Below, piece by piece: positions 1 to 34,480 of a stretch of 34,480 nucleotides of DNA. The notes beneath the pieces are model-generated. The model was not told where the DNA came from. It worked only from the letters and a program-made list of their open reading frames with translations, and ran no database searches. The DNA is from Lentisphaera sp. (GTDB lineage: Bacteria > Verrucomicrobiota > Lentisphaeria > Victivallales > GWF2-50-93): contig DYMC01000001.1 of assembly GCA_020721745.1 (NCBI GenBank), positions 1-34,480 on the forward strand, given 5' to 3'. Numbering within the stretch: the stretch's first letter is position 1; each line of letters starts with the position of its first letter. The position numbers and the translations under genes were made by a program.

Positions 1-8
1 TAAGAGGA

Positions 9-50
9 GAATAGGAAAACGACTGTAGCTGTAGCAGCTTCTGTAGCAAG
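9..50. repeat. Left arm of imperfect terminal inverted repeat (partner at ~34439-34480)
   Basis: gaataggaaaacgactgtagctgtagcagcttctgtagca (9-48) matches the reverse complement of the last ~42 nt of the window (gaataaggaaaatactgtagctgtagcagattctgtagca), with a few mismatches or indels. It contains three TGTAGC units. Confidence 0.85.
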
Positions 51-113
51 GGCCGCCCAACATCGGCTCGGCATGGGCCGAGGCCGCCCAACATCGGCTC
101 GGCATGGGCCCGA
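51..113 (+). repeat. Tandem direct repeat, 2 x ~31 bp (ggccgcccaacatcggctcggcatgggcc(c)ga)
   Basis: Unit 1 at 51-81 and unit 2 at 82-113 are identical except for one extra c. Each unit has a short gccca...tgggc inverted element. The repeat lies immediately inside the left terminal inverted repeat. Confidence 0.9.
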
Positions 114-262
114 GAGGCCCTAGGATTGATTCTGGGCTCCTCAGAGCATCAGACCCTAGTCACCCTATTACCTGCTGTGCAAAACGCCTCTGGGACCTTC
201 TGGGGCCTCTGGCGGCCGGGGCCCACGCGGCTCCGCGTTCGCTCTCCGTGCCTACTCGGCTA

Positions 263-320: not shown

Positions 321-713
321 ATGAAAAAGACTGACAAGAAGCCTGACCCACAACTCATCAAGGATCTATTTGATGTTGTGAGCGCCATCCAAGCATCCAA
401 GCGCCAAGAAGTGGCAGACCAGATCATTCGATTGCAGACCTATGTAGGTTCCACAGATGACCTCTTTGTTGACCGCCGTAAAGCTGCCTGGGCGCCAGGA
501 GGCAAAGCGCGGGCTACCGTCGAGGCTCGAGCACAGAACCCAAATTGCCGCGTTACATGGCAAGGGGGCGGCTCAGTTCTTTGTACAACTGGGGAGGCGG
601 CTGAGCTTATCAAGAAGACGCCTGCTACGCTGGCTGTCTATCTCAGCAAAGGTAAAGGACGTTATGACTGCATAGTTGATGATGATAAGATCATCACAAT
701 CGAGCGGCTCTAG
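321..713 (+). CDS. Hypothetical early protein with a probable helix-turn-helix (Xis/AlpA-like) segment
   Basis: First ATG (MKKTDKK...) in ORF 126-713. The segment TTGEAAELIKKTPATLAVYLSKG resembles an HTH_17/excisionase-type DNA-binding motif. It is the first gene of the left arm. Confidence 0.5.
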   Translation: MKKTDKKPDPQLIKDLFDVVSAIQASKRQEVADQIIRLQTYVGSTDDLFVDRRKAAWAPGGKARATVEARAQNPNCRVTWQGGGSVLCTTGEAAELIKKTPATLAVYLSKGKGRYDCIVDDDKIITIERL

Positions 714-929: not shown

Positions 930-3029
930 ATGGCACGGACAACCAAGAAGAAACCAGCAGTTACTAATTCAAAAGCATTCAGCCTGGGTGAAGCAAAGTT
1001 AGCCTCATCTGGCCTCACCATCGAGGATGCCAATATCCTCGGCATGACGTTCCTTAGCGGCGAGCAGACGGCCGCCCTCCACCCAGCTTTCAAGCCGCTT
1101 TGCAGTCTGCGCCTCGACTACTTCGGCATCGATGGGGAACCTCTGGCTGACTGGCCTGGGTCCAAGCCGTTCTACCGGCTGCGGTATCTCGAGACAGGCG
1201 CTGACTTCGCCTCACTGGCTAACAAGAAACCGCTACGCTACGCGCAGGAGCCCAACACAGCTCCTGTTGCCTATTTCCCAGCCAACCAAGCATGGGCTGA
1301 GTTGGTTGAGGACGTCGATCGGCCACTGATCATCACAGAAGGCGAGCTGAAGTCGGCCAAGGCCTGCAAGGAGGGGTTCCCCACCATCGGTATCGGTGGA
1401 GTTTATAATTGGCGCAGCCGCAAGCTGGGTCTTGACTGGCTTCCCAGCCTCGAGCCTGTTCGGTGGGTGAAGCGCAACGTCTACATCTGCTTCGACTCGG
1501 ATTACACCACCAACCCCATGGTCTGCGCGGCTTTGCATGAGCTGGCTGAGGAGCTTCATCGCCGAGGTGCCTTCGCCCACATTGTCTCGCTGCCCGCCCT
1601 TGAGGGTCTGGAGAAGGTCGGCTTGGATGACTTCCTCGTGCACGCCGGGCCGACTGCCAACCAGATGTTCCGGAACCTGCTGGCTGAGGCTGAGCCCCTG
1701 GGGCTGACTCGTCCCCTCTGGGCGCTCAATCAGAAGTACGTCTACGTGCAGAACCCGGGTCTGATCATTGACCAGCAGACGGCCTTCAAGTCAACGCCCA
1801 ACGCTTTCACCGGCCACCTTGAAGCCACCCGCAACTACCAGGAGCGGAAGCTCAAGGCCGACGGTTCAGTGAGCTTCACTACCGTGCCAGCCGCCCAGGC
1901 TTGGCTCCGCTGGCCGTTGCGTACTGAGGTGGCTAAACTCACCTACCAACCAGGCCGCGACAAGTTCATCGATGGCCCGCTACCGATGTACAACATCTGG
2001 CCGGGTTGGGGTGTTGAGCCAGTTAAGGGCGACGTCAGCTTGTTCTTGCAGCTCGTTGACCACATCTTCACCGGTGCCGAACCTAAAGCCAAGGACTGGT
2101 TTCTCAAGTGGTGCGCGTACCCGCTGCAGCACCCAGGCGTCAAGCTGTTCAGCTCGGTCGTCATCCACGGCATCAAGCACGGCACTGGTAAGTCGCTGAT
2201 CGGCTACACCTTGGGTAGGATTTATGGCCAGAACTTCACCGAGATCAGCCAGATGGACCTGCACAGCAGCTTCAACGAGTGGGCTGAGGGCCGTCAGTTT
2301 GTTATGGGCGACGACGTGACCGGATCGAACAAGCGGCAAGATGCTGACTTCCTCAAGAAGCTCATCACCCAGCGCGATCTCCGTGTCAACGGTAAGTATG
2401 TCCCAACCTACGTGGTGCCTGACTGCATCAACTACTTCTTTACGGCCAACCACCCGGACTCGTTTTTCCTTGAAGACGATGACCGGCGGTTCTTCATCCA
2501 TGAGGTGCAGGTAGGGCCGATGGACGAAGCGTTCTACATGGAGTACGACCTCTGGTTGGACACCGGAGGATCGGCTGCCGTGTTCGACTACCTGCTGAAC
2601 CTGGACCTCGGCGACTTCAACCCAGCAGCCCCGGCCTTCAAGACCATGGCCAAGGAGCGCATGATCGCGAACATGCAGTCTGATCTGGCCGGCTGGGTGC
2701 GAAGCCTCATGGCGTCTCCTGACTTTGTTCTGCGTGTCGGCGACGTTGTGGTTGGCAAGGACCTGTTCACGTCGAAGGAGCTGCTGCAGTTCTACGACCC
2801 GACCGGCAAGACGGGTACGACCGCCAACGGTCTTGGTCGCGAGCTGGCTAGGGCCGGGGTTCGTCAAATCTGCGGTGGCAAGCCGGTGCGGCTTCACGAT
2901 GGATCGCAAGGCCGGTACTACGCGGTGCGCAACGCGGACCAGTGGTTGACGGCGACTCCGCAAGCTGCTGTGAAGCACCTCGATGACTGGATGAAGAAAC
3001 AAAGCGGCTCGAAAGGCTCAAAATATTGA
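930..3029 (+). CDS. Bifunctional DNA primase (Toprim) / SF3 helicase (P4/D5-like)
   Basis: 699 aa. Toprim-like segments LIITEGELKSAKA and VYICFDSDYTTNP in the N-terminal half. Walker A (HGIKHGTGKS), Walker B (FVMGDDV) and a P4-family C-terminal region (NYFFTANH, DDRRFF). Confidence 0.9.
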   Translation: MARTTKKKPAVTNSKAFSLGEAKLASSGLTIEDANILGMTFLSGEQTAALHPAFKPLCSLRLDYFGIDGEPLADWPGSKPFYRLRYLETGADFASLANKKPLRYAQEPNTAPVAYFPANQAWAELVEDVDRPLIITEGELKSAKACKEGFPTIGIGGVYNWRSRKLGLDWLPSLEPVRWVKRNVYICFDSDYTTNPMVCAALHELAEELHRRGAFAHIVSLPALEGLEKVGLDDFLVHAGPTANQMFRNLLAEAEPLGLTRPLWALNQKYVYVQNPGLIIDQQTAFKSTPNAFTGHLEATRNYQERKLKADGSVSFTTVPAAQAWLRWPLRTEVAKLTYQPGRDKFIDGPLPMYNIWPGWGVEPVKGDVSLFLQLVDHIFTGAEPKAKDWFLKWCAYPLQHPGVKLFSSVVIHGIKHGTGKSLIGYTLGRIYGQNFTEISQMDLHSSFNEWAEGRQFVMGDDVTGSNKRQDADFLKKLITQRDLRVNGKYVPTYVVPDCINYFFTANHPDSFFLEDDDRRFFIHEVQVGPMDEAFYMEYDLWLDTGGSAAVFDYLLNLDLGDFNPAAPAFKTMAKERMIANMQSDLAGWVRSLMASPDFVLRVGDVVVGKDLFTSKELLQFYDPTGKTGTTANGLGRELARAGVRQICGGKPVRLHDGSQGRYYAVRNADQWLTATPQAAVKHLDDWMKKQSGSKGSKY

Positions 3030-5751: not shown

Positions 5752-5964
5752 ATGAAGAAGAAGCCGGTGAACAACCCAGCCTTGCAGTCTTGGCTAGCAC
5801 TGAACGATGCGCTTCGTGAGGCTGGTGAACCGGTCTGCGAGGCGTTGTTGAAAGAGGAGCTGGAGGGGCGCAGGCGCAAGCAGTTCATCAAGCGGATTCA
5901 CAGCAGATTCAACAAAGTCCGCGCCGATCGTGAGCGCGCCGAGCTCGAGGCCAAGGCATCATGA
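5752..5964 (+). CDS. Hypothetical protein (70 aa, basic/helical)
   Basis: RBS caggag upstream. ATGA overlap with the DNA polymerase start. Confidence 0.65.
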   Translation: MKKKPVNNPALQSWLALNDALREAGEPVCEALLKEELEGRRRKQFIKRIHSRFNKVRADRERAELEAKAS

Positions 5965-7874
5965 AGCAGCCTAAACCAGTGTGTTTGGATTTTGAAACAT
6001 TCGGTATTGAGGACAGGCCCAAGTACCCGCCGATGCCCGTTGGTGTTTCGATCAAGTACCCAGGCAAGAAGGCCAGGTACTACGCCTTCGGCCATTCTGA
6101 GGGCAACAACTGCTGTTGGTCTGAAGCAGCCGCTGAGCTGGCTAAGGCCTACGCGCACAAGGACGGCGTCCTGTTCCATAACGGCAAGTTCGACGTGGAC
6201 GTGGCTGACGTCCATTTTGGTCTGGCTGTCCCCAGCTGGGAACGCGTCCATGATACCCTCTTTCTGCTGTTCCTCGACGACCCCCACCAGATTGAGCTGG
6301 GCCTGAAGCCTGCTGCGGCCCGCCTGCTCAACATGCCGGCTGAGGAGCGCGATGCTGTGGGTGACTGGCTGATTGAGCACCAGCCGGTCCCAGGCGTCAA
6401 GATCAGCAAGTCGAGGTCATCTGAGCACTACTTCGGCCGCTACATCGCCTACGCACCTGGCGGCCTTGTGGGCACGTACGCCAACGGCGACGTTGACAGG
6501 ACTGAGGCTATCTTCAACCTGCTTTGGAAGAGGACGGTTGAGCGTGGCATGTTGGCCGCCTACGACCGCGAGCGCCAGCTCATGCCCATCTTGCTGGAGA
6601 TGGAGCGCCAAGGTCTGCCCGTGGACCTCAAGCGGCTGCGCAACGATGTGGCCATGTACAACGAGTGGCGCGACAAGATCAACCTCTGGATCATCAAGAC
6701 CCTGAAGGCCAGCCCCGACATCAACCTCGATTCTGGACAGCAGCTCGTCGATGCCATGGTGCTGTCTGGCAAAGCTGATCCCGATCTGGTGCCGCGGACC
6801 CCGACTGGCAAGTTCCAGACGAACAAGGAGGCTCTGCTGCAAGGGGTCACTGACAAGGTCCTGCTGGCCATCCTCAAGTACCGCACCCAGCTGAACACCT
6901 GCCTGAACACCTTCATGCAACCCTGGCTGGCGACGGCCGAGGCCTCAGATGGTCTGATCTTCACGACCTGGAACCAGACCAAGACCCCGTCAGGCGACAC
7001 CAACGTCGGCACGCGGACTGGTCGCCTGTCATCGACGCCGAACTTCCAGAACATCCCGAAGGAGTTCCAGCCGATCTTCCACCACGAGGCGCCCGACAAG
7101 AAGCTGCCCAAGTGCCCGTTCAAGGACCTGCCTCCGCTGCCCAAGGTGCGGAGCTACATCACGCCCTTCCCCGGGCACGTGATGATCGACCGCGACTACT
7201 CGCAGCAGGAGCCTCGGATCCTCGCCCACTTCGATGGCGGCGCCCTTATGGAGAAGTACCTCGAGAACCCGTGGATTGACTTCCACGACTACGCCAAGGC
7301 GGAGCTCGAAAAGATGGGCAAGTTCTACGACCGCAAGCCGGTGAAGAACACGAACCTGGGTCTGATTTACGGCATGGGCGTGGGCAAGCTGGCTGAGCGC
7401 AACGGCATGACGGTCGAGGAGTCAGCTGAGCTGAAGAAGGCCATCTTGCAGCTGTACCCGGGGCTGCGTGACATGTACAAGGACATGAAGGTCCGCGCTA
7501 AGTTCAAGCAGCCTATCCGCACCTGGGGTGGGCGTGAGTACTACTGCGAGGAACCCAAGCTGATCAACGGGCGCATCCAGGAGTTTGACTACAAGCTCGT
7601 GAACGTGCTCATTCAAGGCTCGGCTGCCGACTGCACCAAAGCCGCGATCATCAGCTACCACGCCGCCAAGCACCCTGAGGCGAAGATCATCCTCAGCGTT
7701 CATGACCAAATCACAGTCAGCGTGCCGAAGAAGATCATGAAGACTGAGATGGAGGTGCTGCGCCAAGCCATGGAAGGGGTGGAGTTCGACGTCCCTATCC
7801 TGAGCGAAGGCTCAATTTCATCAACCAACTGGGACGAACTCCAGGATTACGACAAACGAGGAAAGATCCTATGA
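5961..7874 (+). CDS. Family A DNA polymerase with a 3'-5' exonuclease domain (T7-like, no 5'-3' exonuclease)
   Basis: Exo motifs LDFETFG, HNGKFD and YANGDVD. Pol motif A (DYSQQEPRILAH), motif B (RKPVKNTNLGLIYGMG) and motif C (SVHDQI). Confidence 0.95.
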   Translation: MKQPKPVCLDFETFGIEDRPKYPPMPVGVSIKYPGKKARYYAFGHSEGNNCCWSEAAAELAKAYAHKDGVLFHNGKFDVDVADVHFGLAVPSWERVHDTLFLLFLDDPHQIELGLKPAAARLLNMPAEERDAVGDWLIEHQPVPGVKISKSRSSEHYFGRYIAYAPGGLVGTYANGDVDRTEAIFNLLWKRTVERGMLAAYDRERQLMPILLEMERQGLPVDLKRLRNDVAMYNEWRDKINLWIIKTLKASPDINLDSGQQLVDAMVLSGKADPDLVPRTPTGKFQTNKEALLQGVTDKVLLAILKYRTQLNTCLNTFMQPWLATAEASDGLIFTTWNQTKTPSGDTNVGTRTGRLSSTPNFQNIPKEFQPIFHHEAPDKKLPKCPFKDLPPLPKVRSYITPFPGHVMIDRDYSQQEPRILAHFDGGALMEKYLENPWIDFHDYAKAELEKMGKFYDRKPVKNTNLGLIYGMGVGKLAERNGMTVEESAELKKAILQLYPGLRDMYKDMKVRAKFKQPIRTWGGREYYCEEPKLINGRIQEFDYKLVNVLIQGSAADCTKAAIISYHAAKHPEAKIILSVHDQITVSVPKKIMKTEMEVLRQAMEGVEFDVPILSEGSISSTNWDELQDYDKRGKIL

Positions 7875-9341: not shown

Positions 9342-9712
9342 GGCAGCTGGAAAGCAAGATCGAGCAGGACGCCTGCGACCTCGTGTGGAAGCACCTCGGG
9401 ATCATAGGTTCCAAGCTCGTTACGCCGGGCGACACGGGGTACCCAGACAGGATCTTCTGGCTGCCCGGTGGTCGTCCGTTGTTGATTGAGTTCAAGCGAC
9501 CTGGGGAAGAACTTGCGCCCAAGCAGATTTACATCCACACCCAGCTGAGAAAGTTGGGCTACCAAGTTGAGGTACATGACAATGCAATCCGAGCTTTTCA
9601 AGCCGTCATCGAAGCCGTGGCAACCACACGCCTATCAAAAGAAAGCCGTCAAGTTCTTGCTCGAGCACGACGCATCTGCGCTGTTCTTAGATCCGGGGTT
9701 AGGCAAGACTAG
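9338..9712 (+). CDS. VRR-NUC domain nuclease
   Basis: GYPDRIF...LLIEFKRPG...KQ...L..LGYQV pattern (PD...E.K active site of VRR-NUC). The 3' end overlaps the SNF2 gene by ~135 nt. Confidence 0.8.
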   Translation: MRQLESKIEQDACDLVWKHLGIIGSKLVTPGDTGYPDRIFWLPGGRPLLIEFKRPGEELAPKQIYIHTQLRKLGYQVEVHDNAIRAFQAVIEAVATTRLSKESRQVLARARRICAVLRSGVRQD

Positions 9713-11051
9713 TATCACGCTGGCCGCCATCAAGCTACTCAAGCAGAAGAAGCTGCTGGACAAGGTCCTGCTGATCGCTCCGCTCCGCGTCTGCTACAGC
9801 GTGTGGCCCAAGGAGGTCGAGAAGTGGGAGGACTTCAGCGGCATCCGTGTCTGCGTCCTCCACGGGCCGAACAAGGACGCGCTGCTCAAGACCGAGGCTG
9901 ACGTCTACGTCATCAACCCCGAGGGCCTTGAGTGGCTGCTGCAGGTTGAGAAAACCAAGACTGCCCAGGGTAAGACCAAGGTCAGCGTGGATATGCGCCG
10001 CTGGAAGCAGCTGGGTTTCGACACGCTGGTCGTTGACGAGCTGTCCAAGTTCAAGCACACGAACACCAACCGCTTCAAAGCGTTGAAGCTGGTGCTCAGC
10101 ACCTTCCGCCGCCGCTGGGGTCTGACAGGCTCGCCGGCATCGAATGGCCTGATGGACTTGTTTGGCCAGTGTTACATCCTTGACCAAGGTCGTGCGCTAG
10201 GTCAGTACGTCACCCACTATCGGATGAAGTATTTCGTGCCTAGCCATGACGGCTTCAGCTGGAACATCAGAGAAGGTGCCGAGCAAGAGATTTACGAGCG
10301 CCTGAACCCGCTCGCTTTGCGCATGGCGGCTGACGATTACCTCGACATGCCCACCTTGATCGAGAACAACATCCGGGTGGACCTGCCTGAGAAGATCATG
10401 GAAATGTACGACCGGCTTGAGAACGACCTGATCGCCAAGCTCGATGCCAAGGTTGTCGTGGCCAGCACAGCAGCGGCGGCTTCCATGAAGTGCAGGCAGG
10501 TGGCCAACGGCGGCATCTACCTCGATCCTGAGGTTGAAGCCCTGGTCAAGTTGCCCAAGTCCAAGCGTGAGTGGGTGAACCTGCACACTGAGAAAGTCGA
10601 TGCGCTGGCCGATCTGATCGAGGAGCTGCAGGGCTCACCCATTCTCGTGGCTTACGACTTCGAGCATGACCTCGATCGGCTCCGTGAGCGGCTGGGCAAG
10701 GACGTGCCCTACATCGGCGGCGGCGTGACGGCCAAGCGCTCGGCTGAGCTGGAGAAGGCGTGGAATGCTGGACACCTGCCTGTCTTGCTGGGGCATCCTC
10801 AGGCCATGGCCCACGGTCTGAACCTGCAAGAGGTGGGCAACCACGTCTGCTGGCACTCACTCACCTGGGACTACGAGCTCTATGATCAGTTCATCCGCCG
10901 GGTGCTGCGGCAGGGCAACAAGAGCAAAAAGGTCTTCGTGCACCACATCATGGCTCGTGGCACGATTGATGAGGCGATCCTAGCGGCTGTGAAGTCCAAG
11001 CGTCGTGGTCAGAATGCTCTGTTTGATGCGCTCAAAAAATTGCGCAAATAG
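9576..11051 (+). CDS. SNF2/DEAD-like superfamily 2 helicase
   Basis: HAYQKKAV, Walker A-like DPGLGKTS, DELSKFKH (motif II), and C-terminal helicase motifs (HPQAMAHGLNLQ, QFIRRVLRQG). The start may be 9582 (gagg RBS at 9569-9572). Confidence 0.9.
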   Translation: MTMQSELFKPSSKPWQPHAYQKKAVKFLLEHDASALFLDPGLGKTSITLAAIKLLKQKKLLDKVLLIAPLRVCYSVWPKEVEKWEDFSGIRVCVLHGPNKDALLKTEADVYVINPEGLEWLLQVEKTKTAQGKTKVSVDMRRWKQLGFDTLVVDELSKFKHTNTNRFKALKLVLSTFRRRWGLTGSPASNGLMDLFGQCYILDQGRALGQYVTHYRMKYFVPSHDGFSWNIREGAEQEIYERLNPLALRMAADDYLDMPTLIENNIRVDLPEKIMEMYDRLENDLIAKLDAKVVVASTAAAASMKCRQVANGGIYLDPEVEALVKLPKSKREWVNLHTEKVDALADLIEELQGSPILVAYDFEHDLDRLRERLGKDVPYIGGGVTAKRSAELEKAWNAGHLPVLLGHPQAMAHGLNLQEVGNHVCWHSLTWDYELYDQFIRRVLRQGNKSKKVFVHHIMARGTIDEAILAAVKSKRRGQNALFDALKKLRK

Positions 11052-32607: not shown

Positions 32608-33933
32608 TTAACGGTTGAAATGATTAACGGACGCGATCGGCTCGACCTTAACATCCTCCTTGAAGTTGATCGGCCATTCGTAATCGACGCAGTAACCAAT
32701 GGCCGTCGTGATGTGCTGGTACTCGCTGCAATCTTCCAGGAAGGTGCTGCCCTTCTTGATCTGCACTGTGGAAAAGCCCTTGTGGGCGTACTTGGCTTTC
32801 TCAATGTTCACGAACAGGCTGACCTCACCCCTAGCGTTCTTGATCTTGGCACGCACGGAGTTCTGCCGGTCCTTGATGGCTGGTGCCGCGTTCTTCACTT
32901 TGCGTGTCACGGTCCAGTTGTTGGAGCGAAGAACCTGTTCTATCTCAGTGTAGTCAGAGGCGTGTCCATGCTTCTCACCTGCACGGCCTGCTGGGTCGCC
33001 GTAAATGATGACGCTGCGGTTCTGGTGGTTCTTGAACTTCTCCACGAACTCAAGGGCCGACTGCCTGGCCACTGCGGACTGGAGAACAATCTCATCGAGG
33101 ATGAAGAAGTCATTGCCACGACGGACCCCGACGCCTGAGCTCATGGGCGTGAAGTTGAAGTCATGGCACCACATTAACTGCTCATGGGGCTTGATGACCT
33201 CGTTCGTGTAGTTGTCTGGGCCGTAGTCCTCGTACACACGGCCGGACGCGGTCTCGAAGCTGGCCTCGTATTCCTGCCGATATTGACGCGGCGACATGCG
33301 GCGCTTAGCTGCATCGATCACATCCTTGGGCAGAATGTCTGCGCTCTTCCACGTGTATAGCTTCCAGTCAGGATCGCCACTGGTCCGAGCGTACTCAGCC
33401 ATCTCGAAATAGTGATTCAAGCCGTCAGGGACGCCGATCAACCAGCACCATGGGCGATAGTCGGGCCTCGACGGGTTGAACGTATCAAGGGCTGGGCTGA
33501 TGTGCTCCTGCCACGCACCTTCGCGCACGTCGGCAATCTCATCAATGATGCCTCCGATCCAGTGCACACCTTCCATGCGCTGAGGTTGATCAAGACCGAT
33601 GAGGCTGATCGTGCTGCCGTTGGGCAAGCGAATCTGGAGCTCAGACTCGCTGACTGAGCGGTCACCGAAAACTGACGTGAAGCAGAGACGCTTGAGGTCG
33701 GTCCAGTAGATACGCTTGACTTGGTCCCGAGTAGGAGCAGCCACGAAGTAGGGCCCGGGCTCCCTCATGGCCTCACGCACCACAAAGCGCTTGGCGCGTT
33801 CGGACTTGCCGGACCGCCGCCCTGCTGGGACCACCTTGAACCGCACCTTGTCATTGACCAAGGCGGTTTGAATGGGGTGCTCGGCTAGTGGATACCAACG
33901 CTCCATGTCCTTCTGATGGGCGTGGTCAGTCAT
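32608..33933 (-). CDS. terL: Terminase large subunit
   Basis: Walker A-like VPAGRRSGKSE near the N-terminus. 441 aa. C-terminal nuclease-type acidic motifs. Lies between terS and the portal gene. Confidence 0.9.
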   Translation of the reverse strand: MTDHAHQKDMERWYPLAEHPIQTALVNDKVRFKVVPAGRRSGKSERAKRFVVREAMREPGPYFVAAPTRDQVKRIYWTDLKRLCFTSVFGDRSVSESELQIRLPNGSTISLIGLDQPQRMEGVHWIGGIIDEIADVREGAWQEHISPALDTFNPSRPDYRPWCWLIGVPDGLNHYFEMAEYARTSGDPDWKLYTWKSADILPKDVIDAAKRRMSPRQYRQEYEASFETASGRVYEDYGPDNYTNEVIKPHEQLMWCHDFNFTPMSSGVGVRRGNDFFILDEIVLQSAVARQSALEFVEKFKNHQNRSVIIYGDPAGRAGEKHGHASDYTEIEQVLRSNNWTVTRKVKNAAPAIKDRQNSVRAKIKNARGEVSLFVNIEKAKYAHKGFSTVQIKKGSTFLEDCSEYQHITTAIGYCVDYEWPINFKEDVKVEPIASVNHFNR

Positions 33934-34298
33934 ACTGGAAGCTTCTCCGCGATCGACTTGAGGGCCTCGGACACGGCGTCTGAGTTGCCGCTGATGGAGA
34001 CGGTTTGTGTAGCAAGGCGCGGTGCGTAGTACGGAGCTGCTGCTTTCGCGGCGTCAATGCGTGTGGGAAAGTCAGCATAGAACTCTTCTTCCACAAGTTT
34101 TTTGCTCTTCTCGTTGCCCTTGGCGTCATACTCGACGACCCAACGCTTGTGCACGATGCCTTCACCACGGCTGACCTTCAGCAACCACTCGTGTGGGAGC
34201 AACCCAGCTTTCATCGCCTCTTCGCGAGCTTTGGTCGTGATCTTTTGCACGGAACCCCTGGGCCGACCAGCCCCGCGCCTTGCGCCACCTAAAGCCAT
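33930..34298 (-). CDS. terS: Terminase small subunit
   Basis: 122 aa. The N-terminus GGARRGAGRPRGS is typical of small terminase DNA-binding N-termini. aggagg RBS. ATGA overlap with terL. Confidence 0.7.
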   Translation of the reverse strand: MALGGARRGAGRPRGSVQKITTKAREEAMKAGLLPHEWLLKVSRGEGIVHKRWVVEYDAKGNEKSKKLVEEEFYADFPTRIDAAKAAAPYYAPRLATQTVSISGNSDAVSEALKSIAEKLPV

Positions 34299-34342: not shown

Positions 34343-34371
34343 ATTATAGCTTGCCGGCGGGGCGATGTATA
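34343..34371 (-). promoter_or_regulatory. Sigma70-like promoter for the structural arm (TATACA-N17-TATAAT on the - strand)
   Basis: On the - strand: tataca (34371-34366), a 17 nt spacer, and a perfect tataat (34348-34343), about 45 nt upstream of the terS ATG. Confidence 0.6.
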
Positions 34372-34438
34372 CCCCATCGACGCACGCGCGTGTTATGGCG
34401 CGAAACCATCTGAAGTGGCGCCGGCGGAGTCCACAAGT

Positions 34439-34480
34439 CCTGCTACAGAATCTGCTACAGCTACAGTATTTTCCTTATTC
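34439..34480. repeat. Right arm of imperfect terminal inverted repeat (partner at 9-50)
   Basis: cctgctacagaatctgctacagctacagta(t)tttccttattc is the reverse complement of the left-end sequence with a few mismatches. It contains three GCTACA units. Confidence 0.85.

Follow-up and report, generated by a model that had tools for sequence, protein, structure and literature searches.

The two ends of the DNA analysed here are inverted near-copies of each other, and they raise the question whether a linear phage genome terminates at this point, whether the two copies are parts of one interrupted element, and, in that case, what the element is for. The stretch is 34,480 nucleotides long, is referred to below as the window, and constitutes the entire contig C24 of a metagenome-assembled genome (MAG) of 351 contigs with an assembly size of 2.4 Mb, so that its two ends abut only on paper.

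The genes form two arms, each transcribed from its contig end toward the interior, and the arms meet near 16 kb. The plus-strand arm includes genes for a 130-aa protein, a primase-helicase, a PD-(D/E)XK nuclease, an exonuclease, a family A DNA polymerase (5961-7874; match to phrog_17, 3.6e-91), a further helicase (9567-11051), and nucleotide modification, and the minus-strand arm includes terS, terL, and genes for the portal, scaffold, coat, and ejection proteins, a tailspike, and a holin. An earlier note on this DNA, made from the sequence alone, had listed a family A polymerase and a primase among the gene products, and both are identified here, the latter as a primase-superfamily 3 (SF3) helicase. 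The same note placed the window ends exactly between two divergently transcribed arms, in agreement with the gene map and with the junctions of relatives described below. The contig measures 34.5 kb, against 37.6-41 kb for relatives rated complete by CheckV, and, as both sides of the junction are present, this shortfall of ∼3-4 kb must lie in gene content elsewhere. Exact look-ups of the terS protein and of the 130-aa protein returned no near-identical copies.

A repeat search identified the two ends (left and right iteron arms, Table 1) as the longest inverted repeat of the window. They are reverse complements over 40 nt without gaps, with matches at 35 of the 40 positions (88%) and a longest exact common run of 16 nt. 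Each arm holds three TGTAGC hexamers, six in total, and the two sets are inverted to each other; the left end reads TAAGAGGA-GAATAGGAAAACGACTGTAGCTGTAGCAGCTTCTGTAGCA, and the right end, taken as its reverse complement, reads GAATAAGGAAAATACTGTAGCTGTAGCAGATTCTGTAGCA. When 20,000 random pairs of 50-mers were drawn from the window, none exceeded 25/40 in 40-nt complementarity, compared with the 35/40 observed, and CTGTAGCA occurs five times in the window against an expectation of 0.79, with four of the five copies at the ends. The inverted repeat is far beyond chance, and its earlier description as an imperfect inverted repeat with triple TGTAGC units is accurate. No further copy of the pair CTGTAGC-N(0-8)-CTGTAGC exists anywhere in the 2.4-Mb assembly.

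Table 1. Coordinates of the element, its neighbours, and its counterparts in cultured phages (window positions unless an accession is given)
Feature	Position	Strand	Remarks
Inner continuation of left arm, TAAGAGGA	1-8		Homologous to the GA-rich inner arm '..TAGAAGAATAGAG' of L060 (window ends aligned to L060)
Left (primase-side) iteron arm	9-48	+	TGTAGC at 24-29, 30-35, 42-47
Two tandem 31-nt GC-rich repeats, directly after left arm	51-113	+	Part of lineage-specific GC-rich insert (∼49-320)
First early gene, 130 aa, no family match	321-713	+	Variable slot between candidate origin and primase
Primase-SF3 helicase	930-3029	+	DUF3854 Toprim-like + DUF5906/D5-type helicase + putative C-terminal helical/winged domain; proposed iteron reader
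Small terminase terS, first late-arm gene	33930-34298	-	41% identity to terS of G001
Sigma-70-like promoter TATACA-N17-TATAAT facing terS	34343-34371	-	Outside the arm, ∼70 nt away
Right (terS-side) iteron arm	34441-34480	-	GCTACA at 34442-34447, 34454-34459, 34460-34465
Homologous element, AXL3	MT536174.2 47387-47545 / 1-210		Record opened exactly at the outer edge of one arm
Homologous element, PW916	OL960029.1 18930-19070

More than 100 related contigs are present in IMG/VR, the complete ones measuring 37-41 kb, and over 40 related viral contigs continue straight across the junction, where the genes for the primase-helicase and terS point away from each other. This divergent pair, with 590-1090 bp between the two genes, is found in ∼30 contigs recovered by a terL search and in ∼45 recovered by a primase search, and it is the arrangement obtained by joining the two ends of the window. 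Ten of 20 complete relatives were classed as direct-terminal-repeat (circular) assemblies, and their contig ends lie 2.7-25 kb from the element, at unrelated map positions. Relatives thus span the junction and circular assemblies are opened elsewhere, from which it follows that the map is very probably circular, whether permuted or circular in replication, and that the window ends are adjacent on it.

The closest relatives, L060 and L061 (primase 90% identical at the amino acid level), also indicate what the contig lacks. Their layout is ...GCTACAGAAGCTACTACACTACAG-CCCCTCCTATTCTC-[AT-rich]-TAGAAGAATAGAGAAA-CTGTAGTGTAGTAGCTTCTGTAGC..., and the right end of the window aligns to positions 139-212 of L060, and the left end, from nucleotide 5 onward, to positions 275-314; the 62 nt of L060 between the aligned parts, ∼80% AT, are without counterpart in the window. 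The spacing of inverted TCTGTAGC pairs is 109-131 bp in five complete relatives and 136 bp in L060, versus ∼79 bp when the window ends are joined directly, a comparison that suggests that ∼30-60 nt are missing from the window. The relatives' core includes (TTC)n runs and homopolymers and is 70-90% AT, and an independent contig, L027, also starts inside it. The right end of the window stops within the inner CT-rich part of its arm, CCTTATTC.

On this comparison of sequences, the contig is most likely an essentially complete phage genome that the assembler broke inside the core of a single non-coding element between the early and late arms. Loss of the core from the contig would leave the iteron arms at its extreme ends, where they mimic terminal inverted repeats, and the right-side partner of the first eight nucleotides would be among the unassembled bases, giving rise to an apparent 8-nt spacer. 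The earlier proposal of a large palindrome with an 8-nt spacer must accordingly be abandoned, as TAAGAGGA continues the left arm inward and the arms of relatives flank an AT-rich core. The palindrome was also considered as the cause of the break and was rejected: the arms share at most 16 exact bases, fewer than any usual assembly k-mer and too few to be expected to interrupt a de Bruijn assembly, and the contig holds both arms in full. Among the possibilities that had been offered, a circular genome opened at the palindrome is therefore right in part. The circular map agrees with it, and an origin is the best fit of the three functions proposed for the site (operator, origin, or terminase recognition element), but the palindrome did not cause the opening, and the break lies in the AT-rich core.

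Several further sequence features adjoin the arms. A GC-rich non-coding insert (49-320) contains two exact 29-nt repeats (51-79 and 82-110) spaced 31 nt apart; the insert is absent from L060 and L061, where a promoter directly follows the arm, and a search of the MAG for a host-derived repeat as its source found no second copy. Just outside the right arm lies GTCCACAAG (34428-34440), which is duplicated in L060 (155-170), and in other relatives its place is taken by CTCCACA(T/C)GTG-type motifs. The TCCACA core of these motifs resembles part of a DnaA box and may be a site for a host factor.

Across the relatives, the element consists of opposed (T)CTGTAGC hexamer iterons around an AT-rich core and is found once per genome. 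Hexamers of the GCTACA/CTACAG type number 5-8 per 300-nt junction in every junction-spanning relative, against 0.2-0.55 per 300 nt elsewhere, and 70 sites from 13 lineages give the consensus A-W-T-S-TGTAG-C. The core-nearest sites are in opposite orientation in 12 lineages, at about -30 to -60 from the core centre on the terS side and about +50 to +80 on the primase side, and the inverted TCTGTAGC pairs spaced 109-131 bp apart are essentially unique in complete genomes. At least two opposed iterons per side are also found in L060, L107, L026, L019, and others. The arrangement of the window triplet, with two abutting units and a third after a short gap (CTGTAGCTGTAGC-N-CTGTAGC in the left arm), is found again in L107, a 53.7-kb phage, where it lies on the primase side of the core.

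Of the two inner arms, one is rich in CT and the other in GA (CCTATTCTC ... GAGAATAGG), and the core, ∼60-95 bp in the closest relatives, has a pyrimidine/purine strand skew. It is AT-rich in every junction-spanning relative, with spacers of 68-88% AT in relatives other than L060. In L060 the arms match at 25 of 26 positions around a 95-nt spacer, and the region folds as single-stranded DNA with z = -8.6. Outward-facing sigma-70-like promoters lie outside the arms, and that of L060, TTTACT-N17-TATAAT, begins ∼20 nt past the last iteron. A 26-nt arm pattern had no match in viral or metagenome contigs, and the GC skew gave no origin signal.

The nearest cultured phages by primase are Stenotrophomonas phage AXL3 (59%) and Pseudoxanthomonas phage PW916 (58%). 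Both carry a homologous element with ACAGAA-type arms, CT/GA inner arms, and an AT core, located between the primase-side gene and the terminase genes (Table 1). The element is annotated in neither record, and the AXL3 paper mentions neither termini nor an origin. By large terminase, the nearest cultured group is the Queuovirinae (63% identity), which includes phage 9g, reported to be a pac/headful packager (PMC5567051).

Relatives that share only one of the two flanking modules with the window show which of them the motif accompanies. In L101, L107, L111, L110, and L097, the primase is homologous (57-68%) and the terminase is unrelated or only 24-33% identical, and the hexamers around the AT core are kept; L107 has 14 hits to the hexamer patterns in 300 nt, representing ∼8 sites. 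Conversely, the hexamer cluster was found in none of 15 loci with a homologous terL but a different primase, and these loci carry other inverted-repeat motifs around an AT core. Sequence divergence of terS gives the same picture, since L038-L042, with terS 48-62% identical and another primase type, differ in this respect from L104 and L115, in which terS is equally diverged (51-54%) but the primase is homologous and CTACAG/CTGTAG is retained. Upstream of terS in L038-L042 there is an inverted-repeat/AT-core/inverted-repeat arrangement built of other words: GGCCGTGTG three times and CACACGGCC twice, AATCCCCGTGAAA, and CCATCGCCTCAGAA. The design of the element appears to be modular, with an exchangeable word.

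Two further genomes separate the modules physically. G001 has homologues of both proteins (terS 41%, E 1e-20), and its element lies ∼300-400 nt upstream of the primase gene and 4.5 kb, or four genes, from terS. Between element and primase, a long array of ∼45-nt tandem repeats (TTCTTCGGCCTAAGGTCTTGGG...) occurs directly upstream of the primase gene (L128 400-690), and ATGCA-rich direct repeats are found upstream of terS (L128 4380-4660). In G005, TGTAGC-like sites are at the arm divergence beside terS and the primase is 10 kb downstream, a layout that fits an origin at the divergence point but fits other readings equally. At the level of lineages, the motif tracks the replication module rather than the packaging module.

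The gene for the candidate initiator starts ∼880 nt from the left arm and encodes 699 aa comprising a DUF3854 Toprim-like domain, a DUF5906/D5-type SF3 helicase, and ∼130 aa at the C terminus (residues ∼565-699). A sequence search matches the NrS-1 helicase, and an AlphaFold model (pLDDT 78.6) matches the C-terminal region of that helicase (6K9C, E 3e-14), PriRep5 of the Staphylococcus aureus pathogenicity island SaPI5 (7OLA, E 1.5e-7), PriRep1-dsDNA (7PDS, ∼1e-7), and the D5-type primase-helicases of poxviruses and ASFV; sequence identity to the SaPI proteins is only 11-15%. When the C-terminal region was modelled alone (pLDDT 80), all top hits were winged-helix DNA binders, namely PadR, MarR, Cdt1, Orc1/Cdc6, and RTP, as weak matches of which the best had E 0.09. 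No helicase column separates the iteron classes perfectly. Thirteen columns at various places in the protein come close to doing so; T630 is among them, and the T-T-A-N-G stretch to which it belongs (629-633) is intact in all TGTAG-class lineages except L089 (V-T-A-N-G) and altered in five lineages of other classes. The tree can be accounted for with a single switch of iteron class.

Upstream of the primase start, a leader at 790-905 contains CCCTCAGCAAG ... GACACCTTT ... GGCTGAGC ... GCTGAGGG, segments that could pair alternatively. It is kept in relatives down to ∼57% primase identity and in PW916, an Rfam scan of positions 1-1000 gave no match, and the leader may control the primase-helicase in cis, as a regulatory RNA or attenuator. 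The gene between the arm and this leader, which the earlier note called an early helix-turn-helix (HTH) protein, has no HTH family match, and a search of metagenome and genome contigs found no relatives of its product. As a general binder of the iterons it was rejected, as it is missing or replaced in many relatives that retain them.

The element is probably a replication origin of the iteron type, serving the phage primase-SF3 helicase. The C-terminal domain of this protein would bind the iterons on both sides, two helicase hexamers would load face to face at the iteron arms, the AT-rich core would melt, and, if firing is bidirectional, forks would leave both ways, each co-directional with transcription of its arm. 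The contig itself is without the core, and an AT-rich core in this phage is predicted from its relatives.

Among the other explanations, a linear genome with genuine inverted repeats or hairpin telomeres at its ends, both raised in the earlier note, would account for a repeat at the two extreme contig ends, but these readings are very improbable. Protein-primed phages of the phi29/PRD1 type carry their repeats at physical ends, and here more than 40 relatives read through the junction and circular assemblies are opened elsewhere; moreover, the replication genes comprise a family A polymerase, the primase-SF3 helicase, and a further helicase rather than a family B protein-primed system, and 8 nt at the left end have no partner at the right end. 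Hairpin telomeres of the N15/PY54 type need a protelomerase and a perfect telRL palindrome, and neither is found. The ResT/TelK domain (PF16684) has no match in the whole assembly, as expected from the earlier statement that no protelomerase gene is present, no tyrosine recombinase or integrase is encoded on the contig, the arms are 88% complementary, and the relatives' core is not a perfect palindrome. That sequencing or assembly created the inverted ends artificially, for instance through a fold-back chimera or an adapter, deserves next to no credence. Inverted duplications at contig ends are a known class of artefact, yet such an artefact would be exact, and these arms differ at 5 of 40 positions and are homologous to arms in the independent assemblies of L060, L061, L107, AXL3, and PW916.

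The position of the element fits some other functions as well as it fits an origin. Transcriptional control, in which the iterons would bind an activator or repressor of divergent early and late promoters and the core would be an UP-like or bending element, has a modest outside chance. The element is always located at the arm divergence between outward sigma-70-like promoters (that of the window is given in Table 1), a position that fits such a role equally well, and the TGTAGC-like sites of G005 mark the start of the early arm even though the primase is 10 kb away. The iterons, however, lie upstream of the -35 boxes and not over the core promoters, no conserved regulator gene adjoins them, the first early gene being variable or missing, and the motif occurs once per genome and so defines no promoter family, whereas opposed multi-copy hexamers around a 60-95 bp AT core are the standard layout of an origin (PMC9371898). 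A transcriptional role would also be compatible with an origin, as initiators often autoregulate. That the iterons are instead TerS sites (pac or cosB-like), with the terminase cutting the AT core and the contig ends lying near the virion ends, is distinctly unlikely. As with lambda-type cos and 9g-type pac sites, repeated short motifs are found just upstream of the small terminase gene, 143 nt from the terS start codon in the window and within 150-250 nt of terS in most relatives, which is the usual pac/cos neighbourhood (PMC5567051). Two independent assemblies, this contig and L027, end inside the core, when ∼0.3 such events would be expected for ∼150 contig ends, and in the more distant phages L038-L042, whose terS is homologous, an inverted repeat with an AT core still lies upstream of this gene although no primase gene is its divergent neighbour. 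Against packaging, the motif follows the primase lineage and not the terminase lineage, as the hexamers persist with the unrelated terminases of L101, L107, and L111, are lost where terS/terL are homologous but the primase is another, and in G001 are far from a homologous terS. Relatives assemble across the element with scattered contig ends, and no termini map to it in their direct-terminal-repeat assemblies; cos ends would lose at most an overhang and not ∼60 nt of core, and in headful packagers such as 9g, a member of the nearest TerL group, most molecules span pac. There is, finally, a slim chance that genome ends are also generated in the AT core of the origin, or that this site has an unusual chemistry or structure in virion DNA, for example a persistent nick, a gap, or a primer remnant. 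Were this so, replication initiation would be coupled to packaging next to terS, and it would be understood why both ends of this contig and the start of L027 stop in the same ∼70-nt core and why dozens of other assemblies, which may derive from intracellular DNA, continue across it.

For annotation, the contig may be treated as circular on paper and, but for some tens of bases, complete, and, because its ends are halves of one element, the genome should not be annotated with inverted terminal repeats. With the origin as the preferred reading of the element, a probable origin is identified for a large and mostly uncultured phage group, comprising more than 100 IMG/VR contigs of ∼37-41 kb and relatives of 47-56 kb that include AXL3 and PW916, and the iteron word together with the initiator could be used to sort lineages. 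This kind of element is already known and the conceptual gain is small; the group would nevertheless offer a clear example, in virulent phages, of the pairing of iterons with a self-loading primase-helicase that is familiar from SaPIs and P4.

The origins of SaPIs provide the closest comparison. An AT-rich region at their centre separates 6-12 iterons of five or six nucleotides, of which each side has two or more, oriented oppositely to those of the other side. The iterons are recognised by the winged helix at the C terminus of Rep, a self-loading SF3 helicase that in SaPI5 is fused to the primase, and one hexamer is proposed to load on either side (PMC9371898). The six hexanucleotide iterons of the window are within this range and are opposed three against three, the central AT-rich region is seen in the relatives, and a neighbouring gene encodes a ∼700-aa primase-SF3 helicase whose predicted fold matches 7OLA and 7PDS and which has a putative C-terminal helical/winged domain. 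Differences are also apparent. SaPIs are satellite islands, whereas the present element belongs to a lytic-type phage with a P22-like head from Gram-negative-type lineages; the SaPI origin is immediately downstream of the helicase gene, whereas the element here is ∼880 nt upstream, often with a gene between; and the primase domain here is the Toprim-like DUF3854.

In satellite phage P4, primase, SF3 helicase, and C-terminal origin-binding domain are parts of one polypeptide, the alpha protein, which recognises short direct and inverted repeats near an AT-rich stretch. By description, its ori resembles the present element in pairing a single-polypeptide initiator with short repeats beside AT-rich DNA, but the P4 repeats are octamers and P4 has crr as a second cis site, in contrast to the single cluster per genome found here; no P4 alpha structure was among the structural hits. 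In eukaryotic viruses, polyomavirus large T antigen and papillomavirus E1 form head-to-head double hexamers on opposed penta- or hexanucleotide sites beside AT-rich DNA and replicate bidirectionally. Opposed short sites beside AT-rich DNA are likewise a feature of the present element, of which these origins, like that of P4, would be functional analogues; the origin-binding domains of these proteins are of another fold, however, and their sites abut a short central palindrome, whereas the iterons described here flank a core of 60-95 bp.
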